From: a virus
Strand: one strand, 5' to 3'
Virus record (IMG/VR): IMGVR_UViG_3300023109_001684
Length of the DNA stretch: 64,000 bases
The notes below the pieces were generated by a model. It did no database searches. It was given only the letters and a program-made list of their open reading frames with translations, and was not told the origin of the DNA. Positions 9,801 to 63,788 of the stretch are shown in pieces. Positions within the stretch are counted from its first letter, which is position 1. Every line of letters starts with the position of its first letter. The position numbers were made by a program, and so were the translations under genes.

Positions 9801-10377
9801 ATTGTATAGAAGCTACGGTGCAGAACTAAACAAAATTAAATCTATTAGTGATGAAATAATTTATCACCCAGTAAAATACAAACCGTTGTTTGGAAACTAT
9901 GCAAACAGTGACTTACAGGCTACGTTCAAATTAGTTAAGAATAAAGATCAAGTATTAAATGATAACGATATAAGAACACGAGTTATTGATGCAATTAATC
10001 AATACTTTGCATTAGAAAACTGGGAATTTGGCGATACATTTTATTTCCAAGAACTAGTAACATATGTAATGAGTAGGCTTGCTCCAGATTTAGTTACAAT
10101 GTTAATTGTTCCGAAACAATCAAGTCAGACATTTGGTAGTTTATTTGAAATAAAGTCTGAATCAGATGAAATTTTTATAAACTCAGCAACAGTTGCAGAC
10201 GTAGAGTTAATAGATGAAATTACTGCTACTAGATTAAATGCTACTGGTAACGTAATTACAAGTTCGTCGTTATCCCAAAATACAGGAATAACAAGCGCAT
10301 CAGCTACACCAACAAGTAGTTCTAATACATCAAGCAGCTCATCAGGTAGTTCCAGTAACGGAGGATATAGTTACTAA
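6850..10377 (+). CDS. gp6: Baseplate wedge subunit, T4 gp6-like
   Basis: 1175 aa; DFDNLRRTMINYL..YPEDFNDY.ESS, ENYLELAERRESIL.LA..LSYNP, FSDGVFG and QNRMITGEDY motifs; follows gp25. Confidence 0.85.
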   Translation: MSATDRQNRLLVAEDWKRVYQTFRNADFQSYDFDNLRRTMINYLRRNYPEDFNDYIESSEYLALIDLIAFLGQNLAFRIDLNARENYLELAERRESILRLARLLSYNPKRNQAANGLLKFSAIKTTEDVLDSNGVNLAGQTIEWNDSTNANWYEQFIKIMNTSLPVNGVFGRPNKKEDVNGISTEQYRVNGINTNVPVYSFNKAIEAKSTPFQVVSTDINDGDIQEEPPIPGNNFAFLYRDDGQGAGSSNSGFFAHFRQGVLNTGDFSISQPTSNQTIAIDSTNINNSDVWLYKLDANGNENEFWTKLDAVEGNNIIYNSLSKKIRNVYSVTTRVDDRINLIFSDGVFGNLPKGNFKIYYRTSGNRKMIISPQSVNGVEIDISYLSKAGKVHTLTLTLGLEYTVSNSETSETNESIKRSAPSTYYTQNRMITGEDYNIGPLGVSQDIVKVKSVNRTSSGISRYFDLIDATGKYSNTNLYGNDGIVYKQEITGKTNFTFDTQTDIEGVIINSIEPILTDKKVKHFYLDKLSTVNTIDLGVYWNSVSRDVNTFTGFFDDIDNQTFQVGGFTATSLRYVEPGAVIKFIAPPLQDGTPQHFMADGTIMSGLADHPGSREYIWTKVIQVQSDGITSTDTNLGAITLSDDIPTGAQLSQVRPKLATSLLDDVKTEIIDQTFAYNDFGLRYDRNLRQWRLIKETNINKRNNFSSGFTGDLSNQNLDSSWIILFETDGEIYTVTYRMLRYVFESDKEIRFWYDDNDKIFDAKTGKLIKDKISVLSINTRPGSINNFSRTFDWETLQEYRDAEGYIDSTKIEVTFANSDNDDTIDDPELFEQYCIDPDINADTPYVFLEKYRTQAGTEDFRYISKTDLNVHVVDVSPTKYDGPVGAYSQYDDGQLFYFHETNTFKTLVSSVPELRLTANYRAFVGRDEIKFQYVHVADTNARIDPSASNLIDSFLLTKEYDRQFRLYLDGQLNSKPLPPSSDELYRSYGAELNKIKSISDEIIYHPVKYKPLFGNYANSDLQATFKLVKNKDQVLNDNDIRTRVIDAINQYFALENWEFGDTFYFQELVTYVMSRLAPDLVTMLIVPKQSSQTFGSLFEIKSESDEIFINSATVADVELIDEITATRLNATGNVITSSSLSQNTGITSASATPTSSSNTSSSSSGSSSNGGYSY

Positions 10378-19300: not shown

Positions 19301-22300
19301 TGAAAAAACAGACGAAGCAGGAGCAACCCTATCTGCTAGTTATCCTGCTTCAACAAACAGAGATTGGACATTAACAAACAATATTCCTATAATTGGTACT
19401 GGAACTTCAGGATTTTATAATAATTCTGGTGTGTTTATGGTATACACTAAAGCAGGAACAGAATGGCAACGTCGAGGAACGTATACAGTTCCGGTTACAA
19501 CTAATAATGCAGAATATAATCCTGCAAGTCCTCAAACTACAGTTGAGCAATTAGGTAAGCAAGTTGAAATAAGCCAAGAAAAAGATTTGTATAGAATATT
19601 TGTAAGTTCTAAAGATAAAGTTTTTGTTATTAAACACGGTGTTGACAATAATGATATAGAATATAATTTTGCGTTAGACATTGATAATAGATATAGAGGA
19701 ACGTATAGTACATTAGTTCCTTATGCAAAAGACGAAATTGTATTGTTTGAAGGAAATTTATATCAGTCTAAAACTTTTAGTTTTGCAGTTCCAACAACTA
19801 ATACTAATAATTGGATACTACTTGATCAAAACATACAAAACAATTTCTTTGTACCTAATACAAACGTTGGTAACATATATTCAGATACGTTGTTTGATAG
19901 TGTAGATACTGTACTAGACTTTAGTAAAGATATGGCAGTAAGTGAAGATGGTCAAGTACTAGTTATAAGTATACAAACTAATACTACATCGGATGCAGAT
20001 AATAAAGTTGTAATTTATAGATTAAATTCAGAAGGTAGATATATTTGGAGCCAAACACTTGTTGCACCAACAAGTAATACACAATGGGCATCAAGTATCG
20101 ATGTTACTCCTAATGGTAATACACTAGTTGTTGGAGATCCCGGAAATGACGATAACGGATATGATACCGGTAAAGTATATGTTTACACTCGCATTGGTAC
20201 AAGTTTCGTACTTACTGACACATTAATTGGAAACGAAACTGAATTAGCAAGAAAGTTTGGTACAAAAGTAAGTGCTACAGAAGATATCATTGCTATATCA
20301 TCGTTCAACGGAGATATAACAGCTAATACTACATATGATGATGATACGACAATACTTGATAATAGATTTACTAAATTTGTTAATACTCAAATTGATAGCG
20401 GAAGTGTTACACTTTACGAAAAATTTGATAACGGGTATATATTTGCTGAAGAGCTAGAATATAGTAATATAAAATCTAGCAGATTTGCTGAAACTTTATT
20501 AATAAACAGAAATCATATTTACGTAGGCTGTGCAGGACAACCTGCATCAGAAGATGTAATAAACGATGGACAAGTTATTAATTATATTTCACCAAAAGGA
20601 ACAAAATCTTGGAATGTTATCCGCTCAGCTAATCCAGTTGTTGATACAACTAAAATTAGAAAAGTATTCTTATACAATAGAAAAACTGGACAGCTAGTTA
20701 AAAATCTAGACTATGTTGATATACATCAAGGAAAAATTCCAGGTCCTGCAGAACAAGAATTAACTTTTAAAAGTTCTATTGATCTTGCAAAATATAATGT
20801 TACTTCTGATATTAATATATTTAATGATACTGATAATTGGGAATCTAATTATGTAGGAAAATTATGGTGGGACATTAGTACCGCTAGATTCCATAACCAT
20901 TACCAAGGAGAACCATTAGAGCAAGCACAAACATGGCACTCAATGATTAGTACATATTCTATAGATGTGTATGAATGGGTAGAAAGTAGTTTATTACCTT
21001 CAGAATGGGACGCACAGGCCGATACACCAGAAGGGTATGCTAAAGGAATAAGTGGACAAACAAAATACAGTGATGCTGCTTACTCACAAAAATTAACATA
21101 TGATAATGTTAGTAAATCTTTTGGCACAAAGTATTTTTATTGGGTTAAAAACAAACTAACTATACCTAGCGATCAAAGTAGAACTATAAGTGCTGGTCAA
21201 GTATCTTCGTTAATAGGAAATCCAAAAGCTCAAGGATATCAATTTGCAGCATTATTAAGTAATGATAGATTTGTGTTATATAATTGTCAAAGTCTTTTCA
21301 AAGACGATGATATTGTATTGCATGTTGATTATTATACACTTGATAATCAAGAACAGAATATACATACACAGTATCAATTAATATCACAAGGATTAGAAAC
21401 TAGTGAACCGTCTGCTGAAATATCACAAAAATGGATAGACAGTTTAGTAGGATACGATGTCCAAGGACGTCATGTTCCAGATAACGATTTAACAGTTAGA
21501 GAAAAGTACGGAATAAACTATCAGCCAAGACAAAGTTGGTTTATTAATAGACATGAGGCTTTAAAACAAGTTGTCGAAAGAGCAAATTCTGTATTAAAAG
21601 AAAATATTATAGTTGATGATTTTGATTTTACAAGATTGACAAGTAAAGATACTCCACCTAGCACATATAAAAGAGAATACGATGTTGTAATTGATACAAT
21701 TGATGATTTACAATTTGTTGGAACAGCAAAGGCAAGACCTGCGATTGTTGATTTAATAGTTAATGAAGGTGTTGTTACTAGGGCTCGAATACTAGATAGA
21801 GGCAGATCGTACAAAGATATTAACGGTACACTTAAAGGACCGTCGTATAATATTGTAGGTGCAGGATCAGATTTAGAAATTGCTACTACAATTAATAATA
21901 TTGACGGCAGTCTAGCATCGATAGAGATTTTAAATGGCGGCACAAATTTTGAAGATACTACTCAGTTATTATTTAGAAAGTTACGTGTACTAGTTAATAA
22001 TGACGAAACAGCAAACGGACGTTGGTCAATATATGAGTGGAATCATATAGATTTAATATGGGAAAGAGTACAAGTACAGTCTTATAATACTGGTAATTAT
22101 TGGAACTATACAAATTGGTTTGCAGCAGGTTACAATCAATTTACAACTATAAACCATTTAGTTTCACAAAGTTATGAACTAGAAAACGTTGACGATAGAA
22201 TCGGAGATATAACTAAGATTAGTAACATTGGTTCCGGCGGTTGGTTATTATTACAGAAGACTGCTGACACAGGCAGTAGAAATTACACTGACGATTATAC

Positions 22301-25300
22301 TACAATTGGTCGTGAAAATGGAACGATTGAAATTGATCCAGCTGTTTATACAGTTTCAACTAATGCATCGGGATTTGATAGTTTTACATTCGACGGCAAC
22401 TTTTATGATAATGAACCAAATGTTGAAATTAGAAACATATTAGATGCACTAAGGTATGATATTTTAGTAGATAATTTAAGATCTGAGTATAATGAATTAT
22501 TTTTCAGCAGTATACGTTATGTACTAAGTGAGCAACCTAATGTAGATTGGGTATTCAAAACTAGTTTTGTTAAAGCAAAACACAATGTAGGTGAATTAAG
22601 AGAAGACATTACATTTAACAACGATAACTTACCAAGCTATAATGAGTATATTGAGGAAGTAAAACCTTATAAAACAAATATTAGAGAATATCTAAGTTCT
22701 TATGAAAGAACTGACAATACTAATACTCTTACATCAGATTTTGATGTACCGCCGATTTATCAAGACGGTAAAATAGTTCCCAGCAATTTAAAAGTTAGAG
22801 GTAATCAATTTATTGGATCTGAAGGAAGATTTAATGAATACCCTGATAAGAATTGGTATGATAATGCAGGTTATAAAATTACTTCGGTAGAAATTTATGA
22901 TGGCGGCAACAGTTACACTTATCCACCTAAGGTGATCTTTGAAGGTGGCGGCGGCACAGGTGCAGTAGCTCATTCATATATTGCTAGAGGAAAAGTTAAT
23001 AAAATTGAAATAACTAATCCTGGCAGCGGCTATACTAGTGCTCCAACAGTAATTTTAGAAGGTAGTGTTCAAGATGGCGGAGAAACTGCTATTGCTACTG
23101 CAATATTAGGCGAAACACTCACAAAAACAATGCATGTTGCAATGAAGTTTGATAGAACGTCAAAAACTTTTGTATATAACGTATTGCCTGAAATAGAAAC
23201 ATTTACCGGTACTGCTGCAAAATTAGTATTTGATTTAAAATATCCAATGGATCTTAGAACTAATAAACTTGAGATTATTATAGACGGAGAAAAACAATTA
23301 AGAAGTCAGTACACATATGAAAACGTAAAAGATACTACTAAGTCCTATACTAGATCGTTAGGACGTATTAATTTTGTAACTCCCCCTGCACTTAACAGTG
23401 TAATAACTGTAAGTTATTCTAAAGATGTTAGCATGTTAAATGCAGCTGATAGAGTAACTAATTTTTACGACCCAACTACAGGTATGTTAGGCGCTGAATT
23501 ATCACAAGTTATGACAGGTATTGATTTTGGCGGTGTTGAAGTACGTAGCTTTGATTTTGATACTGAGTCAGGATGGGACACTGATGGATGGTTTACAACA
23601 CCATGGGACACATATGATAATACATATGAAGATCATGTTTTTTATGCAGACGGTACAACTATTATAATTGAGTTAGATAGTGCATTAGAAGACGGTGTTA
23701 CATACAATATATACAGAAATGGTGTTAGAATAGATGATTCTAATTACCCAGCTAATCCTACAAATCCTAATGCTATTATGACTTCGATTGTAGGAGACGG
23801 CCAACAAACGTTGATAAATCTCGCAGAATTAGGTATAGATCTAAATACTGACGATATCTTAATTGTACGCAAAATTACAAGTGAAGGTACAGTAAATCCT
23901 GATACTGATAGTTATGATACACAACTTAGTGGCGGCCAATTAAATTATGGTAATGCCGGCGGAACAGCTTCTGAAGATATTATAGTAGACGGAGACTTAT
24001 TTGTAACTCCGAACAACGCAGCTGGCACTGAAGAACTAGTTGCAGGACAAGTACTAGATACAGTAGATATAAAAGTATTTGAAAGATCAGGTACTGGCAC
24101 AGGACAAATATATAGCCAAAACTTTATTACAGACGGCACAACAGTTTATGATTTAGTAATACAACCAAATAGTCCTGATGCAGTTATTGTTAAGATTAAC
24201 TCTAATATAGTCCATGACTATACTATAGATCTTAAACAGAATACATTAACGTTTACATCAGCACCTACTGTAGATCAACTATTAACAATTTTAACAATTG
24301 GTAAAAACGGACAAAATATATTAGATATTGACTCTCACGTTGCTGACGGTAGTACTACTATTTTTGAAACAAGTGTTGCATGGCAAGATGATCTTCAAAT
24401 TGTTACTACAATAGACGGAGAAGCACATTCACCAGAAGCAGTAAATGCACGTAAGAGTGCTAATAATCGAGTAGAGTTTGAATTTACAGTTAGTACAGAA
24501 GCAGGCTCCACACTAGAGTATGAAATTTATAGTAACAAAGATGAAATTAATTATAGTAAAGTTGCTAAATCTGTATTAGTAGCAACAGGCGGCACTAAAA
24601 CATATACGTTACCTGTAACTCCGTTGTATAGTAAGCCTGAAGGATTTTATACAATAGTTGAAGTTGACAATAAAGTGTTAATGCCAGGATATAGTAGACA
24701 GTTTACTATAGACAGCCCGTTAACAAGAGAATATGAATTTGAAAAATTCCAAGTAGCAGTATCTACATTACAACCGTCATTACTTAAAGTTTATCTCAAC
24801 GATACATTATTAAACCAAGGAACACAATATCTTGTAAACATTGGTAATTCAAGTATTATACTTGATCCGGGTATATTAAAATTAGGTGATAAGCTCGAGT
24901 TGTTTACAATGGATTTAGCTGATTACATAATTGAAGGTAATGTGTTAACATTTACAGATAACTTTGCTGGACCACAACAAGACGATATAATTAATGTTTA
25001 CACATTTAGTAATCACGGTGTTAACGAAATAGAAAGATATTCGTATACAGCGTTAGCACGTAGTAGTTTAACTGTAGGAACAGATGAGTTTACTCGCTTC
25101 CATAGTATTTTAGGAGGTAAGATTAGACTTAATGATCCTGCTATAGCATCGCAGTACGTTTGGACAATTATAAACGGTGAACTATTACAACCAAATGTTG
25201 ATTATTCATTAAGTGATGACAAACAGCATGTAATACTTAATACCCAATTAACAGAAAATGACACTGTAGATGTTATACATTTCTCAGCTCCATTATCTAC

Positions 25301-26000
25301 ACCTAAAATTGCATGGAGACAGTTCCAAGACATATTAAACAGAAATATGTATAAGAGACTAGACAATGCGTTAAATATAACTTTACAAACAGATTTACTT
25401 AACGATGATTTGCGTATTAATGTAGTAGATACATCGCAATTACCTGATCCAGACAGACGTAATAATATTCCAGGTGTTGTTTTCATTAATGGCGAAAGAA
25501 TAGAATATCTTGTAAAAGATAATAATTTGTTAAGACAGTTGCGTAGAGGTACATTAGGTACAGGTATTAAAGATATACATTATGCTGGTACAAAAATTGA
25601 ACCAGCAGGTAGAGAGAAAAATATTCCGTATGCTGACAAAACGCATGTACAAAATTTTATTGCAACACAGGGTCAAACAAATTTTGAATTAGACTTTGTA
25701 CCGAATAGTGTAAATGAATTTGAAGTATTTGCAGCTGGTAAACGGTTAAGAAAAACAGCATTAGAAAAATTTGTAATAGGATCAGAATTAGATTCGCCCG
25801 AAGGCGATATAACACTTGCTCCTGAATTTACATTATCGGGTAGTACATTAGTACTTTTAACCCCAATTGAAGAAGATAAACGAGTAACAATAATTAGAAA
25901 AACAGGTCAAATATGGGGTCCAACAGGAACTCCTATAAAAGACTTACAAAATGACATTGGAAATTTCTTGCGCGGAAGCATAAGTGAATTACCTGAATAA
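10377..26000 (+). CDS. Giant multidomain virion structural protein (baseplate wedge gp7-like position)
   Basis: Uninterrupted 5207-aa ORF coupled to gp6 by TAATG. N-terminal LLPKYFRT; FG-GAP-like propeller repeats, CBM5/12-like motifs, an E1-FCCH-like segment and GSGYTSAPTV-type repeats typical of large myovirus structural proteins. Confidence 0.75.
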   Translation: MAYNKNQSQSPVPLNSNENRKSVDLLPKYFRTNANQKILSSTIDQMLQPGVATKVEGYYGRKTAKSFRANDTYINDVSEQRQNRQLEPAAVVTDDLGNVQFYKDYPDYINQISNFNGNVSNQSLLNSQEYYSWNPNIDWDKFVNFREYYWLPYGAQTVNVAGENNTVQSTYVVTAEEQDDNTVYLFSPPGFTPNPDLRLFRGQKYIFEINTPGHPFSFNTNLNFADVQYEIEIDNTGTYRLLTAESAGESISSVYIESMKAFDLDGNEIPPVNVEEGTIELTVAYEAPDRLYYASKTSINTSGLVKVFDIEENTSIDINDIIGKKTYRSANGVEFTNGLKVEFVGEVSPTQYATGAWYVEGVGEKIKLINEDNLTIPAAYVDDIQIEFDSEGFDRMPFENANSFAGVKDYIVINRSSVDRNPWSRYNRWFHRDVIEKSAEYNGQPAVIDQTFRATRPIIEFEAGLKLYQYGTQAKNDIDLIDTITKDVFSTIEGSLGYNIDGVDISEGMRILFAADTDILVKNKIYKVNFITVQDKGRIISLIEEADTTPLENETLLITNGTLQKGTSWYYDGTDWKQGQDKTATNQQPLFDLFDDTGNSISDKELYTSSDFTGNSIFSYVQNTQEATDSELGFGLSYKNIENLGDILFDFSLITESYTYQNNTVLSTIKSNALYLKKFRDRTNFTNQNGWSKGRKLSQQAVIRQYIAGDQVNNFAVDVFDNSGLLLDLDVKVILNNNIQKKDLHYTIDIINDVAFIRFENDLSVDDVLQLNCYSSATANSNGYYELAHNLERNPLNDDMASFTLGEVIDHVGTIVQNTNQYNGNVYPGSSNLRDLGDVDRFGTRFVKHSGPINLPLFHITNKEANVVKAIRYSRLEYAKFKRLFLQTANNLGYDGPVKQTVDKIFSTINAEKNDSMPFYFTDMVPVSGYLRTEHNVSSSDTNYYALNEIFSITSLTEKAVLVYLNGLQLTHGKDYTFNDEGFVNITATKAPGDIIEIYEYESTDGCYVPATPTKLGLYPKYQPKIFTDNTYIEPVTMIQGHDGSIVKAYDDFRDDLILELELRIFNNLKQAYNTNLLDIHDFIGGEYRDTKFTKKAIDKSYTADFIQWTTLAGNPDYTSNEYYIEGNSFTYNYKTMISPQGNQLPGWWRQVYIQAYDTDRPHTHPWEMLGFTIEPKWWKDEYGPSPYTRSNTLLWEDLQNGIIRDPSSAIKSNKKYSRPGLVNHIPVDDTGVLLSPLESNFAQNYVAGPTKELFGYGDGNPAETAWRKSAEYPFAVLLSWVLNQPAKVLGIGFDISRIKRDLVGNLVSTKTNNCIRLKDIVFPNTVKDNTRQTTSGLVNFVYNYLASNTTSNYKSYQNLISNINNRISLKVGGFTEQEKFKLILDSRTPLNKGNVFVPQENYKVFLNSSSPVTTISYSGVIVEKQSNGFIIRGYDREKATFEYKQPFVRANDPSINIGGISETFVEWSERKQYVKSQNVRFSGSFYRCKESHVSGTTIDVEKFQQIATLPLIGGSSAILRREFTTRELSIPYGTLLKTRQEVIDFLLGYEASLVEKGFEFNYYNDELSQVSNWSLSVKEFLFWTTQNWAAGSVLSLSPAASEITFSKDYCVVDDIFDKFYDYSLFKSDGTRLDKSFTSIVRDNQNTFGILPKNTQDGIYHIKLPLVQKEHVVLLDNETVFGDVIYDQPAGYRQERIKVVGYKSDGWTGGLNIPGFVYDEAIVDEWTSYKDYSIGSLVKYKEFYYVSTIDLTGVEKFNENDWERLDERPQPKMYPNFDYRINQFADFYDLDSDNFDVEQQKHAQHLIGYQKRQYLQNIINDDVSQYKFYQGMIQDKGTINSLDKLFDALSSADKDSIDFYEEWAIRAGQYGATDNFNEVEFIIDEDKIKIDPTTVQLVKSIPANDTDDIYKIIPNDVYYRPKDYNHKPFPTTNAPHIGVKTSGYVNDKDVVYKVKIKADLLQSLPSSIGISDYVWITGTTEDWDVLQHITTDYHVTSIEGFTELVDAIDRSASPAVKITFDRTTNFIPGDIVGLQQVGNGNWGFYQIEEINNTVAIASVQDRTLVNDSENLNGYVSILRSVRASSLDEANLILEKFKLHDQVIWLDGTSNNDWKVIKRQETFTDYNVIDNPYLVATETNFSNSMATSLGNTNLLVGDETVEDGVVHFYSRASSSNNLRNMGELTPETSAVFGIGVTNANPGVVTATDHNLQSGELVRFKEVSGMTALNNLEFYANVINENTISMYSDVGLTQSIDTTSYGTFISGLILKSNGYSLKSNFGHDVAISPDGKLAVVGAPNATNISDNIKGDFREAGPVGVADAEYKTGDIVKYNENYWKAVRNIPAENNAIEFSTFDSYAFFEETIQPLPETLVINFPLKDDGITVDQLGSFEQKEIVNVQSNNVSAIVEDIQIILNGSGNKVGERLTLSSPTGDIQQGDQIVGKESGASGIINTLEEAAPVNINSRQLTLILQGNPYLPNSVTDHILVRAPLDQYRATKPQDKIVLGWNRYTGFNRASDQYTSTELFTNSISLNNTGQPDSNNKTYVAPRSSFINNEHEIIHKVDHVLYIVNPLIVPEVNDTVDCSTGSAKVVKVISKVDRLVVYITETNGFFPTDSTVSLESVVIGDYTQPNNTTNNGLGGFWYIAAEADGYYNGNEFSDLSKFGIPAYGLVYKDVLVYDETNDSYSSTNRFYYNSLDNVGATPNKEPGHLQILSHRGDAYDAVSGVRDIKDSRWIIRAPAAASFSEDDEFRVWINTEEGINDLSKLDGQTGDQVVLKVNNNEHNDLPHIVNDIWDGYIDILLTAKQTADIDVPSDIDTDISDYFEPSVGDYIEDGVTGARAQVVHYIKRNIADVRVYVKDITITNTGFQNRNDIRVDFTPYSLGRRPMGQIQKVSIAGTGHDSSLGKFLVVTASTAPKFYDSSENPAGYTPENYFNSNPSLFTFDPHPDSYGSTDATKDLNVFGYINKEYWIYSEKTDEAGATLSASYPASTNRDWTLTNNIPIIGTGTSGFYNNSGVFMVYTKAGTEWQRRGTYTVPVTTNNAEYNPASPQTTVEQLGKQVEISQEKDLYRIFVSSKDKVFVIKHGVDNNDIEYNFALDIDNRYRGTYSTLVPYAKDEIVLFEGNLYQSKTFSFAVPTTNTNNWILLDQNIQNNFFVPNTNVGNIYSDTLFDSVDTVLDFSKDMAVSEDGQVLVISIQTNTTSDADNKVVIYRLNSEGRYIWSQTLVAPTSNTQWASSIDVTPNGNTLVVGDPGNDDNGYDTGKVYVYTRIGTSFVLTDTLIGNETELARKFGTKVSATEDIIAISSFNGDITANTTYDDDTTILDNRFTKFVNTQIDSGSVTLYEKFDNGYIFAEELEYSNIKSSRFAETLLINRNHIYVGCAGQPASEDVINDGQVINYISPKGTKSWNVIRSANPVVDTTKIRKVFLYNRKTGQLVKNLDYVDIHQGKIPGPAEQELTFKSSIDLAKYNVTSDINIFNDTDNWESNYVGKLWWDISTARFHNHYQGEPLEQAQTWHSMISTYSIDVYEWVESSLLPSEWDAQADTPEGYAKGISGQTKYSDAAYSQKLTYDNVSKSFGTKYFYWVKNKLTIPSDQSRTISAGQVSSLIGNPKAQGYQFAALLSNDRFVLYNCQSLFKDDDIVLHVDYYTLDNQEQNIHTQYQLISQGLETSEPSAEISQKWIDSLVGYDVQGRHVPDNDLTVREKYGINYQPRQSWFINRHEALKQVVERANSVLKENIIVDDFDFTRLTSKDTPPSTYKREYDVVIDTIDDLQFVGTAKARPAIVDLIVNEGVVTRARILDRGRSYKDINGTLKGPSYNIVGAGSDLEIATTINNIDGSLASIEILNGGTNFEDTTQLLFRKLRVLVNNDETANGRWSIYEWNHIDLIWERVQVQSYNTGNYWNYTNWFAAGYNQFTTINHLVSQSYELENVDDRIGDITKISNIGSGGWLLLQKTADTGSRNYTDDYTTIGRENGTIEIDPAVYTVSTNASGFDSFTFDGNFYDNEPNVEIRNILDALRYDILVDNLRSEYNELFFSSIRYVLSEQPNVDWVFKTSFVKAKHNVGELREDITFNNDNLPSYNEYIEEVKPYKTNIREYLSSYERTDNTNTLTSDFDVPPIYQDGKIVPSNLKVRGNQFIGSEGRFNEYPDKNWYDNAGYKITSVEIYDGGNSYTYPPKVIFEGGGGTGAVAHSYIARGKVNKIEITNPGSGYTSAPTVILEGSVQDGGETAIATAILGETLTKTMHVAMKFDRTSKTFVYNVLPEIETFTGTAAKLVFDLKYPMDLRTNKLEIIIDGEKQLRSQYTYENVKDTTKSYTRSLGRINFVTPPALNSVITVSYSKDVSMLNAADRVTNFYDPTTGMLGAELSQVMTGIDFGGVEVRSFDFDTESGWDTDGWFTTPWDTYDNTYEDHVFYADGTTIIIELDSALEDGVTYNIYRNGVRIDDSNYPANPTNPNAIMTSIVGDGQQTLINLAELGIDLNTDDILIVRKITSEGTVNPDTDSYDTQLSGGQLNYGNAGGTASEDIIVDGDLFVTPNNAAGTEELVAGQVLDTVDIKVFERSGTGTGQIYSQNFITDGTTVYDLVIQPNSPDAVIVKINSNIVHDYTIDLKQNTLTFTSAPTVDQLLTILTIGKNGQNILDIDSHVADGSTTIFETSVAWQDDLQIVTTIDGEAHSPEAVNARKSANNRVEFEFTVSTEAGSTLEYEIYSNKDEINYSKVAKSVLVATGGTKTYTLPVTPLYSKPEGFYTIVEVDNKVLMPGYSRQFTIDSPLTREYEFEKFQVAVSTLQPSLLKVYLNDTLLNQGTQYLVNIGNSSIILDPGILKLGDKLELFTMDLADYIIEGNVLTFTDNFAGPQQDDIINVYTFSNHGVNEIERYSYTALARSSLTVGTDEFTRFHSILGGKIRLNDPAIASQYVWTIINGELLQPNVDYSLSDDKQHVILNTQLTENDTVDVIHFSAPLSTPKIAWRQFQDILNRNMYKRLDNALNITLQTDLLNDDLRINVVDTSQLPDPDRRNNIPGVVFINGERIEYLVKDNNLLRQLRRGTLGTGIKDIHYAGTKIEPAGREKNIPYADKTHVQNFIATQGQTNFELDFVPNSVNEFEVFAAGKRLRKTALEKFVIGSELDSPEGDITLAPEFTLSGSTLVLLTPIEEDKRVTIIRKTGQIWGPTGTPIKDLQNDIGNFLRGSISELPE

Positions 26001-54013: not shown

Positions 54014-54821
54014 AAGACACACAGTTAGTATTATTTTAAACGACAACAACTTTGTTACTTGTTGGACAACCCAACTTGAAAAGTGTTTAGACAATAGTTT
54101 GTATGCATACGAAGTTACATTAAATGGATTTAATCAAGGTAGTGAATTTAAAAATTTAAGAAAAACACTTCAAGATCTTAATAAATTTAAGCAAGGAACT
54201 GTTCCTGCATCGTTTACTAATAAGTTTGAATTTACAATGCAAGAATTAAGTGATCTTCATTTCATATACGAAAGTATTGCAACAGATGAAACATACCTAG
54301 AAGTAAAAAAGTTAGTTGACCAGTTTAACGATAATATACATCATGCTGAAGAAGTTGCGATTAAGAATCAATCAGCATCACCTAGATTAAGATTTAGAAT
54401 AGTAGATCCTATTACTGGAGTTCCAAATGTGGAAAAACTTCCACTCGAGTATGACGACTATAAGTTGTACGATCCTTATATTAGACCTTATACTGTTTAT
54501 TTAAATTACAATGCATTGGGTGAAGATTTCTTAAAAACATATAAAAGTGGCAGAACTCCTGATACAGCAGTAGTTTTAGAAAAGTTTAGCCCTAGTTTCT
54601 TTTTTACACTGCAAGCAGATTATATAGATAAGCAGCATACAGAAATTGAAAACTGTAAAAAGTGGCTAAACGATAGTAACATAGACATTAATAAATCTAA
54701 AAATGCAATAGGTCATATTCCTCTAGGGACAGTGCATAAAGTGTATGCTGAAGATTTTTTAAAAGTTATTTTACAAAGAAAATTAACAAAGGTGGAACTA
54801 ATAGATGTTGAAAGAAATTAA
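53988..54821 (+). CDS. Hypothetical protein, His/Glu-motif family (copy 2)
   Basis: LSDLHFIYE, FNDNIHHAE, VYLNYNALGE, KNAIGHIP. Start set to ATG 53988. Confidence 0.65.
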   Translation: MKILNLTFERHTVSIILNDNNFVTCWTTQLEKCLDNSLYAYEVTLNGFNQGSEFKNLRKTLQDLNKFKQGTVPASFTNKFEFTMQELSDLHFIYESIATDETYLEVKKLVDQFNDNIHHAEEVAIKNQSASPRLRFRIVDPITGVPNVEKLPLEYDDYKLYDPYIRPYTVYLNYNALGEDFLKTYKSGRTPDTAVVLEKFSPSFFFTLQADYIDKQHTEIENCKKWLNDSNIDINKSKNAIGHIPLGTVHKVYAEDFLKVILQRKLTKVELIDVERN

Positions 54822-55455
54822 AACACTTGATCTGTGTGGTGTTGAATTAAACATATATAAAGGACCTAATGCTATTAGTGTCAGCGGCGGAGCAGACAGT
54901 GCAGTATTATTGTACTTCCTATTAAAACATTCAACTGACAGATTGCATATTTTTACACTTGCAGATGGAACAAAAAACATTACAGGCGCAAAAGCAGCAA
55001 TGAATGTAGTGTACGAATGTGCAAGATTAACAGGCAATTACAACTTTGAACATCATATTGACTACTCGCCTGATTATATTGATACATATGTAGAACGCTT
55101 ACCGTTTGAATATTTAGATAAAAACGAATTTAATGTTCTATATGCAGGTATTACCAATGTTCCGCCTGTAGAAGAACGTAATGAGTTCTACGGCAACTTT
55201 TACGAAGATACGAGAAACCCTGAAGAAGTTAGAGAAGTTTTTAGATATAACTTCAGTTATATACCTTGGACTAATTACGATAAGAAAAAGATTGCAGAAA
55301 TTTATAGAGAATACGAATTACTAGATAATCTTTTTCCAGTTACAAGAAGTTGTGAATGGAACGAATTTGTTAGTAGCAAAGATCCTGGAATGGACCACTG
55401 CGGTGAGTGCTGGTGGTGCAACGAAAGACAATGGGCATTTGGGAGATTAAAATGA
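54805..55455 (+). CDS. QueC-like PP-loop ATP pyrophosphatase (7-cyano-7-deazaguanine synthase-like)
   Basis: SVSGGADS PP-loop; C-terminal TRSC...HCGECWWCNER zinc motif. Confidence 0.75.
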   Translation: MLKEIKTLDLCGVELNIYKGPNAISVSGGADSAVLLYFLLKHSTDRLHIFTLADGTKNITGAKAAMNVVYECARLTGNYNFEHHIDYSPDYIDTYVERLPFEYLDKNEFNVLYAGITNVPPVEERNEFYGNFYEDTRNPEEVREVFRYNFSYIPWTNYDKKKIAEIYREYELLDNLFPVTRSCEWNEFVSSKDPGMDHCGECWWCNERQWAFGRLK

Positions 55456-56552: not shown

Positions 56553-57448
56553 AATTTTGTATAATATTTACTAATAATGACAATGAGGAGTATACTTTGA
56601 AATATAAAGTATACAATACACCTATTGCTGTTAAATGGTACGAGTCGTTGTGTAAGCAAGTCCTAAACAAAGATAATAAAGTAAAAGAATCCGACAGGCT
56701 CTATAATTTTCCAGACGATGAGTGGAACGAAGAAAAAATAGTTTCAGAGTTAAATAAGTGCATCGAGACTATAAATTCTAAAACTAAAGTTATAATGCAT
56801 ACTGCATTTGTCGGAATGCCTCAAGAACAGCTAAATCATTTGCATCATTACTTCGAAGAGTTAAGAGGTGCTTCTAAAAATTCGGCAGACTATTACTTAA
56901 ATGCATCACCTAACGAACGTCTTGCTCTTGAAAGATATAATGTTATTATACATCGAGCAGAAAACTTTTATTTAGAAAACACAATTAATACATCAAAAGT
57001 ATCTCCTAGAATTGTAGTAACTTTTAAGGGAAGGAAAAAAGAATTGCTAGCAGATAACGATTATGAATACTTTACTTTACATAGAAAATTTGGAGAAGTA
57101 TATATCAATTATTGCGAAGTAGGAAAACCGTTGTATGATGTATATAAAGATAATGATGATATTGTTGGGGAAGATAATATACGTCCGTTAAAATGGTACA
57201 GTCCTGATTTTACAGCTTATTTTTTTAATCGACCTATAGAAACAGTTGAAAACTTTTTACAAGGCATGGATCTATGGTGGGATCAAAATAATAATTATTT
57301 AACTGCATTAGGGTTTACAAAGGGAGATCCGAAAAATGCAATTGGAAATATTCCGGTTGCCATGTTAGAAAGTTCTCTAACTTCTAAAGAAATAGTACTA
57401 GCAATATCTGAATACAATAATATAGATAGGGTTGAAATTTATGACTGA
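56549..57448 (+). CDS. Hypothetical protein, His/Glu-motif family (copy 3)
   Basis: LNHLHHYFEE, YNVIIHRAE, VYINYCEVGK, KNAIGNIP. Confidence 0.65.
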   Translation: MKFCIIFTNNDNEEYTLKYKVYNTPIAVKWYESLCKQVLNKDNKVKESDRLYNFPDDEWNEEKIVSELNKCIETINSKTKVIMHTAFVGMPQEQLNHLHHYFEELRGASKNSADYYLNASPNERLALERYNVIIHRAENFYLENTINTSKVSPRIVVTFKGRKKELLADNDYEYFTLHRKFGEVYINYCEVGKPLYDVYKDNDDIVGEDNIRPLKWYSPDFTAYFFNRPIETVENFLQGMDLWWDQNNNYLTALGFTKGDPKNAIGNIPVAMLESSLTSKEIVLAISEYNNIDRVEIYD

Positions 57449-58190
57449 ACAAGAAATTAAAGAAATGTTTTTCTTTAACGACAATTGGAAAAACATAGGA
57501 GTTAAATTATCAGGAGGCGCAGATAGTGCAATTATGTATTATGCTATTTGTGATCATTATAAAGATAGAGACGATGTAAACATATATCCAATGTCTCTTG
57601 ATACTAAATTTAAACCTTGGTATAGTAAAGGTGCAAAACGTATTATAGCTAAAGTTACAGAACTAACAGGAAAAAGTCCACAAGAACATATTGTTAAGTA
57701 TTCTAAAAAACACACTAATCGTCAAACAGCAGATTGGTATATAAAAGAGCAAAAAAATCTAATAATAGAAAGTCATATAAAGTTTAATTTTGATGCAGTG
57801 TACAATGGATTAACTAGTAATCCTGTTGAAGAAGATTTTTTAGAATCTATAAGACAATATTATCCAGACGATAAATTATTTGAGTTGACTAAGAAGCATA
57901 TCGTAAAAAGAGACTTTGATAGAGACTTAGGAAAAAACAAATATGGACAAAATGTAATTGATACAGGACATTTTATCAATATTAGACCGTTTGTACACAA
58001 AGATAAAAAGCTTACTGCTGAAGTTTATAAATATTACAATAGACTAGACGACTTATATCCTTTAAGCTATAGTTGCGAAACTAGATGGCAAGAACATAAA
58101 TTAGAGCAAAAACATTCGCACGAATGGAAACATTGTGGTTATTGTTTCTTTTGTGCAGAACGTATATACGCATTTGGAAAATTAGAATGA
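57441..58190 (+). CDS. QueC-like PP-loop ATP pyrophosphatase (second copy)
   Basis: KLSGGADS; SYSCE...HCGYCFFCAER..AFGKL. Start set to ATG 57441. Confidence 0.75.
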   Translation: MTEQEIKEMFFFNDNWKNIGVKLSGGADSAIMYYAICDHYKDRDDVNIYPMSLDTKFKPWYSKGAKRIIAKVTELTGKSPQEHIVKYSKKHTNRQTADWYIKEQKNLIIESHIKFNFDAVYNGLTSNPVEEDFLESIRQYYPDDKLFELTKKHIVKRDFDRDLGKNKYGQNVIDTGHFINIRPFVHKDKKLTAEVYKYYNRLDDLYPLSYSCETRWQEHKLEQKHSHEWKHCGYCFFCAERIYAFGKLE

Positions 58191-58788: not shown

Positions 58789-59229
58789 ATGACATACGAT
58801 GAATTTAAACATAACTTTCTAACCTGGGCAATAGAATATATAGAGCCTGTGCAAGATAACGGATATCCAGTATGTCCGTTTGCTAAAACAGCCAGGTTGA
58901 AAAATGAAATACAATTTATCGATGCAACTCAAGACGTATTTAATGCTTGTGCAAAGTTTGACAACAAACAGTATAAACTAGGAGTAGCTTGGTTAAATGA
59001 TAATTTATTAAATGTTGATCAAGTAATAAAAGAATTAACAGCAAAAAATGACAATCTTCTGTACTTTAAAAGTACTACTAATAGCGGTCATTTTGTTAAA
59101 AACTTTACAAACTGTATTTTTATACAAGACAAAGGCGATATTAACAAAAAAAGAGCATACTTGCAGACTACAGATTATTATCAAAATTGGCCTGAGCACT
59201 ATTTGAAAGAGATAACCGAAAATGCCTAA
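58789..59229 (+). CDS. Hypothetical protein with CPFA motif
   Basis: 146 aa; PVCPFAK N-terminal motif, YYQNW C-terminal motif. Confidence 0.6.
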   Translation: MTYDEFKHNFLTWAIEYIEPVQDNGYPVCPFAKTARLKNEIQFIDATQDVFNACAKFDNKQYKLGVAWLNDNLLNVDQVIKELTAKNDNLLYFKSTTNSGHFVKNFTNCIFIQDKGDINKKRAYLQTTDYYQNWPEHYLKEITENA

Positions 59230-59851
59230 TGTAGAACAAATGTTTAGTATTCCAATTTACAAGAAAAATTTAGGAGACTTAAATCTTCAAAGTTTTCGAC
59301 AACGAGTATTAAAACTTATGGATGTAGAAGACTACGGCGATCATATAAGCGTAGTAGGTATGAAAGACGGTAATACAATTAATACATATGGAATTGAACG
59401 CCATATGCAAACTTGGGAAGAGTCTGATCTACTTGTAAAAGAAGTTAATACAGCCTTAGCCGAGTACTGGAAAGAACTAAACTATCATCCTGACCTTCAG
59501 CCGTACATACAAGAAATGTGGGCAACATTAAGTACACGGGGAGGATTTGTTCCTAGTCATTTTCATGGTCCGACACCTATTACAGCCGTGTTTTATCTAG
59601 ATAAAACAGATAACGCAGGCGATCTAACATTACAACATCCGTTAGAAGCACTACTAGGTTCGCAACCTGTAAACTTTCCGTTTGATGAGTTTGCACAAAC
59701 TATGAATGTGCAGCAAAACGATCTAATGATGTTTCCGGGATATATTAGACACTTTACAGAAAAAAATAAAACTGATAGTATAAGAATTAGTATAGGGATG
59801 AATATTGGTTCTAAAGGAACTTATGTATCGTCGCAATGGAGTCAAGTATGA
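59222..59851 (+). CDS. Putative 2OG-Fe(II) oxygenase (TIGR02466-like)
   Basis: MW..SHFH..AVFYL..G.L..FPGYIRH...RISIGMN pattern. Confidence 0.78.
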   Translation: MPNVEQMFSIPIYKKNLGDLNLQSFRQRVLKLMDVEDYGDHISVVGMKDGNTINTYGIERHMQTWEESDLLVKEVNTALAEYWKELNYHPDLQPYIQEMWATLSTRGGFVPSHFHGPTPITAVFYLDKTDNAGDLTLQHPLEALLGSQPVNFPFDEFAQTMNVQQNDLMMFPGYIRHFTEKNKTDSIRISIGMNIGSKGTYVSSQWSQV

Positions 59852-60885
59852 TTTGGACAGAATGGGGGAAATTAAAAGAAGTAGTAGTTGGAAAAGTTTA
59901 CGATCCTGACGAAGTAGAGTCTGACTTTCTTAAAAAAGTATTAGAAGAAACAGAAGAAGATTTTCAAGTATTAAATAAAATCTTCAAAGATGCCGGTGTC
60001 AAAGTACGTAGACCAGATAATGTTTCTTTGAATGAAATTAAAACTAATCAATGGGCAACTAAGTATCCATTGCCTGCAATATGTCCTCGAGACTTCCATA
60101 TAGTATACGGAAATAACATATTGTCAACGATAGGCGGCGATCCAAATCGATACCTTGAAAGTTTATTTTTCTACAATATTATGAACGAAAAGGCTAATGA
60201 AGGAAGAAACTTTATTAGTATGCCTAAACCGCTACTTCCGAATCATTATGCAAACTATGCCGATCATGATAATATGCCATTATATCATGCTGCAAATATT
60301 ATAAAGTGCGGCAACACATTAATCCATTCTAGGCCTCATGATACTCAAGAATATGCAGATCGGCCTATTAACCAAAAAGGTCGAGGTACTAACGCAGGAT
60401 TTAATTGGGTTAAGAAAAACATTGGTTACGATGTTAACTGGGCTGAAGTTCCTGCTGCTGGACATGTAGACGGAAAGATAGCTTTGTTAAAACCTGGATT
60501 ATTAATGATTCACGATGAAAGTCTTGTACCTAAAGAGATGCAAGATTGGGATAGAATAGTAGTTGACAAACACGAATTGCCCCAACATGTAAAAAATAGA
60601 ATTAGAAATGACTTTTACAACGAAGTTATAATGAAAGATATGCCGCACTGGGTAGGATTTGAATACTTACCTATGGAAACAATCTTTGATGTTAATGTAG
60701 TAAGTATTGACGAGAATACTGTAATAACAAACGGATATAACAAAGAAATCTTTAATAAATGTAAAAAATATGGTATTGAGTGCATACCTTTTGATTTCCG
60801 CCATAGATTTTTCTGGGACTGCGGAATACATTGTATAACATTAGATCTTGCTAGAGACGATAAGATGGAAAACTTTTTGTCATGA
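59848..60885 (+). CDS. Pentein-fold amidinotransferase-like protein (glycine/inosamine-phosphate amidinotransferase family)
   Basis: EWGKLKEVVVG, CPRD, PKP, HVDG, DVNVVSID, GIHCITLDLAR. Start set to ATG 59848 (ATGA overlap). Confidence 0.85.
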   Translation: MIWTEWGKLKEVVVGKVYDPDEVESDFLKKVLEETEEDFQVLNKIFKDAGVKVRRPDNVSLNEIKTNQWATKYPLPAICPRDFHIVYGNNILSTIGGDPNRYLESLFFYNIMNEKANEGRNFISMPKPLLPNHYANYADHDNMPLYHAANIIKCGNTLIHSRPHDTQEYADRPINQKGRGTNAGFNWVKKNIGYDVNWAEVPAAGHVDGKIALLKPGLLMIHDESLVPKEMQDWDRIVVDKHELPQHVKNRIRNDFYNEVIMKDMPHWVGFEYLPMETIFDVNVVSIDENTVITNGYNKEIFNKCKKYGIECIPFDFRHRFFWDCGIHCITLDLARDDKMENFLS

Positions 60886-62057
60886 ACGAATTAGTAGTTA
60901 TAGTAAATCCTGCAAGAGACCATTATGATGTAGTTAGAGAAGTCTTTAACAATTATACATACAAGATATTAATACTTTGGTCGTCTGAAGAGGACAAAAA
61001 TACAATACATAACAAGTACAGAAAGGATGATACGAGTTTTCACTACGAAGAAGTTTATACTAAAGAAGTAATAGATCGATATGCGCAAACGCATAAAATA
61101 ATTGCCTGTATTCCCAGTGGAGATGATAGCGTTGATCTTGCATTAAAACTTCAAAATCGTTATGTACCCAAAAAATCAAATTCTCTAGAAACAATTGATA
61201 TAATCAAAGATAAAGAATTGTATTTAAATTTACTTAGAGAAAAAGGAATTGTTACTACAAGACAGTACAGTCTTAATAATATAGAAGAATATCCTGTAGT
61301 TGTAAAACCTAAAGAAAGTCGTGGCGGAAGCGAAAATGTATACTATGTGAATAGTCTATCTAGTTTACCATCCTTAAATTCTAACGATTATATAGCACAA
61401 GAATATGTTGATGGTCCGGAATATACAATAGATATTGCAACAGCATCCGGCGAACATCATTTATTACTTGCTACAGAGTATAGTAAAAAACATGGATCGT
61501 TATGGCAATATAAAGAATCGGTAATGAATTATACAGAGAATAGATATTTCATTGACGAATTGTACGAGTATGTATGTTTATGTTTAGATGCGTTAAACTG
61601 GAATTTCGGTGTTACTTGCGCACAAGTAATAGTAGATGAGAAACACAAAATACATCTAGTTGAAATAAATTTTAGAAAACACGGACACATAAGTGATCAC
61701 GGAGTTTATCTATCTTCAGGCATAAAACTATCTACACATGTTAGTAATTTATATTTAAATACTGATAAATTTAAAAACAGAATTTCTTACTACGATTATA
61801 ATCAGCCATATGAAAGATTCTGGGTTAATGTAGAAAGTTCTAAGTATATTGAAAGTATTAACTGGCCAATGTTAGAAGAGATTCCTAGCTTTATTGGAAA
61901 AATAGATCACAATATACTTTTTAATTTACCAAAAAAAGTTAATCCTTCGACTAGTATGTTAAGTAGTCTAGGTATGGTTTCTTTATCAAACTCTGATTTG
62001 GTACAATATGATAAAGATATAGAAGCATATAATAATTGGTGGAATACATATAAATGA
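60882..62057 (+). CDS. ATP-grasp domain protein
   Basis: DK, YPVVVKP..SRGGSENV, QEYVDGPEYTID and LVEINFR motifs. Confidence 0.82.
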   Translation: MNELVVIVNPARDHYDVVREVFNNYTYKILILWSSEEDKNTIHNKYRKDDTSFHYEEVYTKEVIDRYAQTHKIIACIPSGDDSVDLALKLQNRYVPKKSNSLETIDIIKDKELYLNLLREKGIVTTRQYSLNNIEEYPVVVKPKESRGGSENVYYVNSLSSLPSLNSNDYIAQEYVDGPEYTIDIATASGEHHLLLATEYSKKHGSLWQYKESVMNYTENRYFIDELYEYVCLCLDALNWNFGVTCAQVIVDEKHKIHLVEINFRKHGHISDHGVYLSSGIKLSTHVSNLYLNTDKFKNRISYYDYNQPYERFWVNVESSKYIESINWPMLEEIPSFIGKIDHNILFNLPKKVNPSTSMLSSLGMVSLSNSDLVQYDKDIEAYNNWWNTYK

Positions 62058-63076
62058 TATTTACTGAATGGGATAAGTTAACAGAAGTTGTAGTAGGTTC
62101 TACATATGATTTAGAATCGTTACAGCAATTTGACGATAACAAGTTTATAGATGGAATGGCTAAAATTTTAGAGGAAACAGAACAAGATTTTTCTAAACTC
62201 TCTGACATATTTAAAAGTTATAATGTTAAAGTACATAGGCCTAAACAACTGCCCTTATTAAAAGAAAACACTAGAACTTGGAATTCAAAGTATCCTTATC
62301 CTGCAATATGTCCTAGAGATTTTCATGTTGTGTACGGAAATACAATACTAGGTACTATCGGTGGAGACTGTAATAGATATACAGAAAGCGATTACTTCTT
62401 AGACATTATGCTTAAAAAATTCAAAGAAGGACGCAACTATATAAGTATGCCTAAGCCGCTACTACAAAGCGACTACAAGGAGTACGAACAACTAGAAGGC
62501 CAAATACTATGGCATGCAGCAAACATTATTAAGTGCGGCGACATGTTGTTACACACGCAGCCTTATGCACCGGAGCAGCACGGAAGAGGAACATATGCAG
62601 GATTAGACTGGATAAAACGTAATATAGGCTATGATGTTAAATGGGCAGAAATACCTAGAACAGGACATGCAGACGGAAAAATTGCACTAATCAAACCCGG
62701 ACTGCTATTCTGTTGGGATCCTAGTGCAATACCAGAAGAATTAAAAAGTTGGGACTATATTAAACTAGAACGCAAGCCGCTACCTGATTATTTTAATGAT
62801 ATTAAAATCCAGCACTTTTACAAAGATAAAGTCACAAGTTGGTTAGATCATTGGATCGGTTATGTAGACGAGACTGTGTTCGATATTAATGTAGTAAGCA
62901 TAGATGCTAATACTGTAATAACTAATGGTCATGATCCTGAAGTAGAACGTAAACTTAAAAAACACGGTGTTGATATGATACCTTTTGATTTTCGACATAA
63001 GTACTTTTGGGATAGCGGATTACATTGCGTAACACTAGATTTAAGTAGAGAAGGCGAACGACAGTCTTATGTATAA
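62054..63076 (+). CDS. Pentein-fold amidinotransferase-like protein (second copy)
   Basis: EWDKLTEVVVG, CPRD, PKP, HADG, DINVVSID, GLHCVTLDLSREGERQSY. Confidence 0.85.
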   Translation: MIFTEWDKLTEVVVGSTYDLESLQQFDDNKFIDGMAKILEETEQDFSKLSDIFKSYNVKVHRPKQLPLLKENTRTWNSKYPYPAICPRDFHVVYGNTILGTIGGDCNRYTESDYFLDIMLKKFKEGRNYISMPKPLLQSDYKEYEQLEGQILWHAANIIKCGDMLLHTQPYAPEQHGRGTYAGLDWIKRNIGYDVKWAEIPRTGHADGKIALIKPGLLFCWDPSAIPEELKSWDYIKLERKPLPDYFNDIKIQHFYKDKVTSWLDHWIGYVDETVFDINVVSIDANTVITNGHDPEVERKLKKHGVDMIPFDFRHKYFWDSGLHCVTLDLSREGERQSYV

Positions 63077-63788
63077 TATTGTAATAAACACACCAGAAGC
63101 ACTAGTAATAGATGATTTCTTACCTCAAGACATTTGGGATAAAATTTGGAATCAAGTACAAGTTGACAAATGGAGTCAATCAGGTGCAGATGATAAATTT
63201 TGGCATTACACTGACGGCGCAAACTATAAAAATAATAAGCGTTGGCTCACTGAAGGTCCTTTTAATGACAACAGTGATCTGTGGTTTAAACACTTTACAG
63301 AATTTCTTAATAAATGCCCCGAAGCAAAACCTTTTGCTAAAGACTATATAGAAATTGCGATGCGCTGCCATGCATATCCGGTCAACAGTAAAAACCCGTG
63401 GCACAACGATTTAGGATTTACAACTTACACTTATTATTTACACAGACACTGGCAAATAAATTGGGATAGCACACTCCTTATATGCCCCCTTGGAAGTGTA
63501 GACTATCAGCAAGTTCTTCCTTTAGAAGAAGGTACTGTGCATCACGACTGTTATACAAACACTAACAGTCCTATGGAAATGTTTCAGCAAGCTGACAAAT
63601 ATAAACCTATTATAGATTACGGTCTCGGAATGTTTGTTAGCCCTAAGCCAAACAGATTAATACTAATTAATAAAAGAGTTGTACACGGAATAACTAGAGT
63701 TGATTCTGATGCAGGCGAGAACATGCGTGTAACACTTACTGGGATGATAATGGAAAGTGATTGGAAAGAAACTAATGATTTATTTTAA
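63069..63788 (+). CDS. 2OG-Fe(II) oxygenase, prolyl-4-hydroxylase-like
   Basis: PWHND (HxD), YYLH..W..NW, PKPNRLI, VHGITRV, RVTLTG. Confidence 0.78.
   Translation: MYNIVINTPEALVIDDFLPQDIWDKIWNQVQVDKWSQSGADDKFWHYTDGANYKNNKRWLTEGPFNDNSDLWFKHFTEFLNKCPEAKPFAKDYIEIAMRCHAYPVNSKNPWHNDLGFTTYTYYLHRHWQINWDSTLLICPLGSVDYQQVLPLEEGTVHHDCYTNTNSPMEMFQQADKYKPIIDYGLGMFVSPKPNRLILINKRVVHGITRVDSDAGENMRVTLTGMIMESDWKETNDLF

Follow-up and report, generated by a model that had tools for sequence, protein, structure and literature searches.

Histidine at the triad-aspartate position marks a mostly viral branch of amidinotransferase-like proteins

The IMG/VR virus record IMGVR_UViG_3300023109_001684 was analysed over a stretch of 64,000 nucleotides (the window), which encodes two amidinotransferase-like proteins, copy A (59848..60885) and copy B (62054..63076, 340 amino acids), on the + strand, as are the genes and motifs located below between 59222 and 63788. 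Amidinotransferases take part in the synthesis of creatine, streptomycin, saxitoxin and cylindrospermopsin and are known from textbooks as Cys-His-Asp enzymes. In both copies the position of the triad Asp is taken by a His, and comparison of the sequences indicates a real, selected and clade-defining change in the textbook triad. Judged from the alignments and the tree, the His is fixed in, and diagnostic of, a large and mostly viral branch of uncharacterised enzymes whose active site has been remodelled. This almost wholly virus-borne and abundant branch has swapped Asp for His and rebuilt the surroundings of the pocket under strong selection, and it offers a natural test of the importance of the third triad member in pentein catalysis. 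A literature search returned no paper describing the substitution or the subfamily, published mentions being generic annotations only. Labels such as "glycine amidinotransferase" or "creatine biosynthesis auxiliary metabolic gene" on marine phage genes of this kind are probably wrong in detail, and the combination of H-A-A-N, FWD-x-G-x-H-C and ET-x-FD provides a clean sequence marker for a conserved module of tail-fibre-linked islands of ocean myophages.

Family membership and the substituted residue

In single-sequence searches against solved enzymes copy B matched StrB1 first (E-value 2.6e-20), followed by HsvA, SxtG and AGAT, and copy A matched StrB1 (5.9e-20) and HsvA (1.8e-19). A profile of 47 relatives aligned over its full length with StrB1 (3.5e-68) and AGAT (4e-54). 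The AlphaFold (AF2) model of copy B, with a predicted local distance difference test score (pLDDT) of 92.4, demonstrated Z scores of 34.8 to HsvA, 34.0 to StrB1, 33.8 to SxtG and 33.6 to AGAT, with a root-mean-square deviation of about 2.5 Å over about 300 residues. All solved amidinotransferase entries fell between 33.2 and 34.8, and other penteins (arginine deiminase, DDAH, PAD) between 20 and 25. Foldseek compared the same model with the solved amidinotransferases at a probability of 1.0 and TM scores of 0.73-0.76. By structure and by descent both copies belong to the amidinotransferase family, and they share its pentein five-bladed alpha/beta propeller. No amidinotransferase family model was matched by either copy in the NCBIfam scan, and the sole PHROG match of the amidinotransferase-like proteins was phrog_25854, of unknown function.

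Residues of copy A are numbered from 59836, where its longest open reading frame (ORF) begins, and those of copy B from 62054. For copy A the ATG at 59848 is the likelier start: it overlaps (ATGA) the TGA of the upstream oxygenase gene and pairs with residue 1 of copy B.

The substituted residue is His151 in copy A (CAT, 60286..60288, in YHAANIIKCG from 60283) and His154 in copy B (CAT, 62513..62515, in WHAANIIKCG from 62510), so that HAAN is read in both genes as the preliminary description had it. HMMER paired this His, in copy A as in copy B, with StrB1 Asp179, a number counted along the printed alignment. In the family profile the His column corresponds to the Asp of FDAAD in AGAT, HsvA and SxtG and of FDAAN in StrB1. 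A profile-profile alignment of 27 His-type with 25 canonical sequences placed H on D with a probability of 100% and an E-value of 2.3e-69, with no insertion or deletion nearby. In the same alignments His205 and Asp207 of copy B correspond to His227 and Asp229 of StrB1 and to His303 and Asp305 of AGAT, and Cys325 of copy B and Cys333 of copy A correspond to Cys332 of StrB1 and Cys407 of AGAT. The triad of AGAT is Asp254-His303-Cys407 (PMC3684758), which agrees with the earlier naming of the residue as the triad Asp. The assignment to the triad position, which had been proposed for checking against AGAT, StrB1 and SxtG, is confirmed for both copies by sequence, profile and fold homology. Nor is HAAN common among characterised canonical amidinotransferases: it was absent from every solved or characterised member of the profile alignment.

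The remaining core was found in full in both copies. The motifs PRD, HxD and GxHC, described earlier as retained, are indeed present in each: PRD with the guanidinium-binding Asp89 at 62312..62320 in copy B (60085-60093 in copy A), GHADG with the catalytic His205 and the guanidinium-binding Asp207 at 62663..62677 (GHVDG at 60460-60474 in copy A), and FWDSGLHC with Trp319-Asp320 and the nucleophile Cys325 at 63005..63028 (FWDCGIHC at 60811-60834 in copy A). The replacement of GGGFHC by FWD(C/S)G(I/L)HC was borne out as well. His205, Asp207 and Asp89 are invariant in the alignment of homologues, and Asp89 pairs with the CPRD Asp of StrB1.

The copies therefore resemble AGAT and StrB1 in full-length homology and fold (Z 33-34), the nucleophilic Cys in xHC, the catalytic His in HxD, the two guanidinium-binding Asp residues and the Arg/Glu framework residues. 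They differ from them in the His at the triad-Asp position, in FWDxGxHC instead of GGGFHC and in an eight-residue insertion with the motif ET.FD before a conserved Asn. They also lack the Arg of the NPxR stretch (AGAT Arg322, counted on the profile alignment), which we take to bind the carboxylate of the substrate.

Distribution of the histidine and remodelling of the active site

The distribution of the His was followed on a maximum-likelihood tree of 235 sequences, comprising the close homologues and the best 150 of 2547 family representatives. His occupies the triad column in 86 of 95 close homologues, a pattern far beyond chance. All His-bearing sequences fall under one node (101 tips, support 0.92), in which the column holds H in 94, E in three, D in two and R in one tip, with one tip gapped. 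The D and E members have separate origins in at least three places of the tree. Asp and Glu are the only replacements in intact members of this clade, so that full-length sequences whose core is intact carry H, D or E without exception.

Copies A and B are 51% identical over their full length, and the preliminary description regarded the same substitution in two diverged copies as telling. The substitution is shared, but the copies are not independent witnesses: copy B is of the common type of the clade and copy A is one of a small lineage with four members. Both fall inside a single pure-His subclade (74 tips), which means that they owe the His to one common ancestor and did not gain it twice.

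The suggestion that HAAN might define a viral clade was borne out, the clade being largely viral. A scan of viral contigs gave 466 encoded relatives, and the nearest clusters of a sequence atlas were 96-100% viral. Outside viruses, FHAAN was found together with FWD in four Bdellovibrionia genomes; the 12 other bacterial relatives all have FDAAN, with GGG in all 11 whose match reaches the Cys motif. Copy A alone as the query matched only the window's own lineage. The phage collection contained no close record: its best matches were Campylobacter phages (26% identity) and cyanophage S-SCSM2R, the latter covering only 38% of the query, and no nucleotide match was found.

The His clade is one of two branches of a superclade of 142 tips (support 0.96), which has two hallmarks. 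The first is FWD in place of the Gly-rich stretch before the Cys, absent from StrB1, AGAT, HsvA and SxtG. The second is the eight-residue insertion, which brings in the conserved Glu273 and Asp277 and directly precedes the invariant Asn279; it is held by YVDETVFDIN in copy B (62861..62890; 60664-60696 in copy A) and gapped in all four solved enzymes. Both acidic positions of the insertion are E or D in 125 of the 142 superclade tips, and the insertion is gapped in 80 of the 93 tips outside. In these 93 tips the triad column holds D in 83, E in nine and A in one. The other branch, the sister clade (41 tips, support 1.0), includes ORF266 of S-SCSM2R. The alignment and the tree indicate that the triad acid lost its strict constraint on the branch that gained three new acids, the His being then fixed in one daughter clade. 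Read in this way, the His substitution forms part of a broader rebuilding of the active site that the sister clade shares. Covariation was considered as a proxy for contact and dropped: FWD and the insertion were gained on the same branch on which the acid was lost, and His205 is invariant, so the alignment carries no independent covariation signal.

Inside the His clade Tyr144 of copy B (62483..62485; Tyr141 of copy A, 60256-60258) co-occurs with His154 in 94 of 94 sequences, and one lineage that went back to Asp/Glu has H, H or N in place of the Tyr. Tyr144 is a candidate hydrogen-bond partner of His154.

The ratio of non-synonymous to synonymous substitution rates (dN/dS) was 0.042-0.051 for copy B against orthologues of 90-92% identity and 0.05 for copy A against the locus L001. 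The His codon varies synonymously among 52 distinct viral genes (CAT in 40, CAC in eight), and the D-H-D-C core is intact in 137 of 139 superclade members. A reading of decay or pseudogenes was ruled out by dN/dS and by conservation of the core, in line with the earlier view that the change is not one of decay. The single Arg tip, P0104, is degenerate and probably a pseudoenzyme: besides the Arg at the triad column, its Asp207 has become Asn and its nucleophilic Cys has become Asp. That the whole group could consist of non-catalytic pseudoenzymes, which would only bind a guanidino ligand or act as virion-associated partners, was also weighed. The loss of Cys, Asp207 and His154 in P0104 and the detection of the sister-clade protein ORF266 in purified virions of S-SCSM2R (PMC12801897) would fit it. 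With the nucleophile, the catalytic His and both guanidinium-binding Asp residues kept in those 137 of 139 sequences, strong purifying selection and every core residue present in both window copies, it is considered highly improbable.

Proposed mechanism and competing explanations

The catalytic core of penteins consists of a Cys, a His and two guanidinium-binding acids (PMC6447857). Since this core is intact in both copies, covalent catalysis on a guanidino group is the default expectation, and both genes encode cysteine-dependent guanidino-group enzymes that are folded, under selection and probably active. In the mechanism proposed for copy B, Asp89 and Asp207 would hold the guanidinium of the substrate and Cys325 would attack it to give a covalent S-amidino intermediate. 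His205 would act as the proton shuttle, protonating the amine that leaves and deprotonating the one that comes in. His154, probably placed by Tyr144, would replace the Asp as the hydrogen-bond partner orienting His205, which would make the triad Cys-His-His, and as a neutral partner it would lower the pKa of the catalytic His. The reading we favour, with only slightly better than even confidence, is that His154 still orients His205 as the Asp would, while its lack of charge alters the pKa of His205. Since H, D and E alone are allowed in intact clade members, the position is restricted to acceptors of a hydrogen bond from the catalytic His; all three residues are able to accept it, which favours the Cys-His-His arrangement. 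The neutral partner, together with FWD and the Glu/Asp insertion beside the pocket, points to an acceptor or a donor unlike those of AGAT and StrB1. As to the earlier proposal of a Cys-His-His site with altered chemistry, the part that stands is a His at the triad position, kept under selection at a dN/dS of 0.04-0.05, and the contact with His205 comes from homology.

Several points weigh against this reading. The hydrogen bond between His154 and His205, the catalytic activity and the substrate are all inferred, the contact from homology only. The phage copies, unlike AGAT and StrB1, gave no Pfam hit: at only 24-26% identity to these enzymes, neither copy matched a relevant curated family, PF02274 included, even at E 10. 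In the sister clade the triad column holds N, S, D, E, P, Q, G, W and others, with the Cys, the His and both Asp residues kept, and the three new conserved acids (Glu273, Asp277 and Asp320) arose on one branch. The third triad member may thus be dispensable throughout the superclade. Finally, the permitted set of H, D and E is also typical of metal ligands.

The variation in the sister clade and the three new acids bear on a relocated or dispensable acid, in which Asp320 or Glu273/Asp277 would do the job of the triad Asp, or none would be needed, leaving His154 free, for example, to bind substrate. This main rival was judged possible but clearly the weaker account. Among representatives at 50% identity, D or E occupies the triad column in 12 of 55 sequences with the W-D/E motif, compared with 90 of 93 without an acid at 320. 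The 41 tips of the sister clade vary at the triad column yet keep the core, FWD and ET.FD. Every superclade sequence has H/D/E at 154, an acid at 320 or both, an observation based on five cases and without statistical significance. D or E stands at 154 in two members that lost Asp320, and His is retained in two others (P0149 and P0076). The insertion begins four residues past the position aligned with AGAT Ser355, presumably a substrate-binding residue. The residue five positions before the Cys may also be likened to the Arg401/Cys406 geometry of arginine deiminase, on which the literature search found nothing. On the other side, the position is constrained within the His clade, with H, D or E in every full-length member with an intact core, and the gain of the motif and the loss of the acid on one branch amount to one evolutionary event.

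A parallel for the lack of an acid, in the favoured triad as well as in this alternative, is provided by the citrullinating penteins PPAD, PAD4 and agmatine deiminase, described as Cys-His-Asn enzymes (PMC4487231). They share the superfamily fold with the phage proteins (Z about 20), and they show that an acid paired with the catalytic His is not essential for catalysis in penteins. The invariant Asn279 lies 46 residues before the Cys, and its equivalence to the triad Asn of the citrullinating enzymes would be an inference. These enzymes are, however, far more distant in sequence and structure, and they are hydrolases and not transferases.

Metal binding, which the preliminary description had mentioned, is a further alternative to the Cys-His-His triad: His154 together with Cys325 and His205, or together with the new carboxylates, would bind Zn or Fe, giving new chemistry or an inhibitory or regulatory site. 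Besides the nature of the residues at 154, the only ones allowed in intact clade members, it could draw on the Zn-bound structure of another pentein, DDAH-1 (7usz), and on the inhibition of AGAT by Zn, Hg and Ni (PMC3684758). The geometry of the triad argues otherwise, as the canonical triad acid sits behind the catalytic His, away from the Cys, and a rearrangement would be required. Moreover, none of the canonical enzymes that carry D or E here is a metalloenzyme, and the alignment holds no extra conserved Cys or His specific to the His clade. A metal site was accordingly rated improbable, although less so than a loss of catalysis.

Genomic setting and comparison with known systems

Copy A, a gene for an ATP-grasp ligase (60882..62057; PF02655 8.5e-11, NCBIfam PRK07206 1.8e-28, PylC-like 1.4e-07) and copy B are co-oriented in this order, and each junction is a four-base overlap. 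Upstream of copy A, and translationally coupled to it through the ATGA overlap, lies a gene for a 2-oxoglutarate-Fe(II) (2OG-Fe(II)) oxygenase (59222..59851; PF13759 4.6e-13, phrog_81). Downstream of copy B lies a gene for a prolyl-hydroxylase-like 2OG-Fe(II) oxygenase (63069..63788). In most viral loci a gene of the latter type follows the B-type gene and is its most constant neighbour. Ten of the 12 members of its family matched PF13640 (best 8.9e-06), and the conserved His112, Asp114 and His206 fit the HxD...H motif. The PHROGs label "DNA endonuclease V" for 63069-63788 looks wrong in view of the oxygenase model and this motif.

The copy A and ATP-grasp pair was found in the window and in the loci L001, L006 and L007 and is absent from the otherwise syntenic L002-L005, where the 2OG oxygenase gene is directly followed by the B-type gene. 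The pair (59848-62057) behaves as a mobile two-gene cassette. We propose that copy B would work with the prolyl-hydroxylase-like oxygenase and copy A with the ATP-grasp ligase, as in the hsv/phevamine system. The hsv operon is a precedent for an amidinotransferase together with an ATP-grasp enzyme (PMC6187163). As in hsv, the amidinotransferase gene adjoins a co-oriented gene for an ATP-grasp amide ligase, and HsvA, at 23-26% identity, is the best structural match (Z 34.8). HsvA differs from the phage proteins in its canonical Asp and in GG(S)FHC; here, in addition, two amidinotransferase paralogues flank one ATP-grasp gene in a phage island rich in radical S-adenosylmethionine (radical-SAM) enzymes and 2OG oxygenases.

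Upstream in the window PHROGs assigned a baseplate hub, a baseplate wedge and tail fibres, and a single ORF (10377-26000) between the baseplate wedge and the tail-fibre genes encodes a protein of 5207 amino acids. Next comes the enzyme island, where radical-SAM genes are numerous and are accompanied by PP-loop enzymes, 2OG oxygenases and a glycosyltransferase. Both amidinotransferase-like genes lie in this tail-fibre-linked island of a marine T4-like phage. The host recognition cluster of marine T4-like pelagimyophages and cyanomyophages was described as a variable island with tail fibres, glycosyltransferases and radical-SAM cassettes (Zaragoza-Solas et al. 2020, PMC7029224). The window is alike in its structural module followed by an island of tail-fibre, radical-SAM and glycosyltransferase genes. 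The boundaries of the cluster are VrlC and gp14, and the far boundary, a neck gene, lies beyond the window. Neither amidinotransferases (zero occurrences) nor their active sites are mentioned in that paper (PMC7029224).

The association with radical-SAM genes extends to bacteria. In Bdellovibrionia (L081-L084, one contig being of 916 kb) a His-type gene of 42-44% identity is flanked by several genes homologous to the N-terminal-twitch radical-SAM genes of the window, along with Asp/Asn beta-hydroxylase-like genes. Phages and predatory bacteria thus have the module in common, and the shared radical-SAM neighbours suggest that the association is old and functional.

In S-SCSM2R (L080, 8512-10090, ORF266 and ORF267) a 297-amino-acid sister-clade protein, with Cys at the triad column and HxD and WDGGLHC kept, is followed by a 2OG oxygenase. 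The virion proteome of this phage lists ORF266 and the oxygenase ORF269 among the virion-associated proteins (PMC12801897), which gives a weak hint, by analogy, of a target on the virion. A bolder reading, which we regard as speculative, is that the FWD/ET.FD superclade is a new pentein functional class, Cys-His-His with three new acids, within a radical-SAM-rich tailoring pathway common to the host-recognition islands of marine myophages and to Bdellovibrionia. It would not make a free guanidino metabolite and could, for example, amidinate or deiminate a glycan amine or an Arg or Lys of a tail-fibre or virion protein. If true, this would be a new kind of phage surface decoration.

A link to 7-deazaguanine DNA modification, suggested by QueC-like neighbours and by the Campylobacter phage matches, was considered and found no support. 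The enzyme of Campylobacter phage CP220 is canonical (Asp, GGG) and only 26% identical, and the lone "amidinotransferase" in a deazaguanine paper is a cited title on ArcS. No other genes of the 7-deazaguanine pathway were seen among the window genes scanned. In CP220, a very distant myovirus (L098, 469-6360), the canonical amidinotransferase gene stands amid three radical-SAM and two glycosyltransferase-like genes, a combination resembling that of the window. The PP-loop (SGGADS) proteins of the window (54805-55455 and 57432-58190) gave weak QueC/TilS-like matches only, and each of their genes is preceded by a radical-SAM gene and a gene for an unassigned protein of about 290-300 amino acids.

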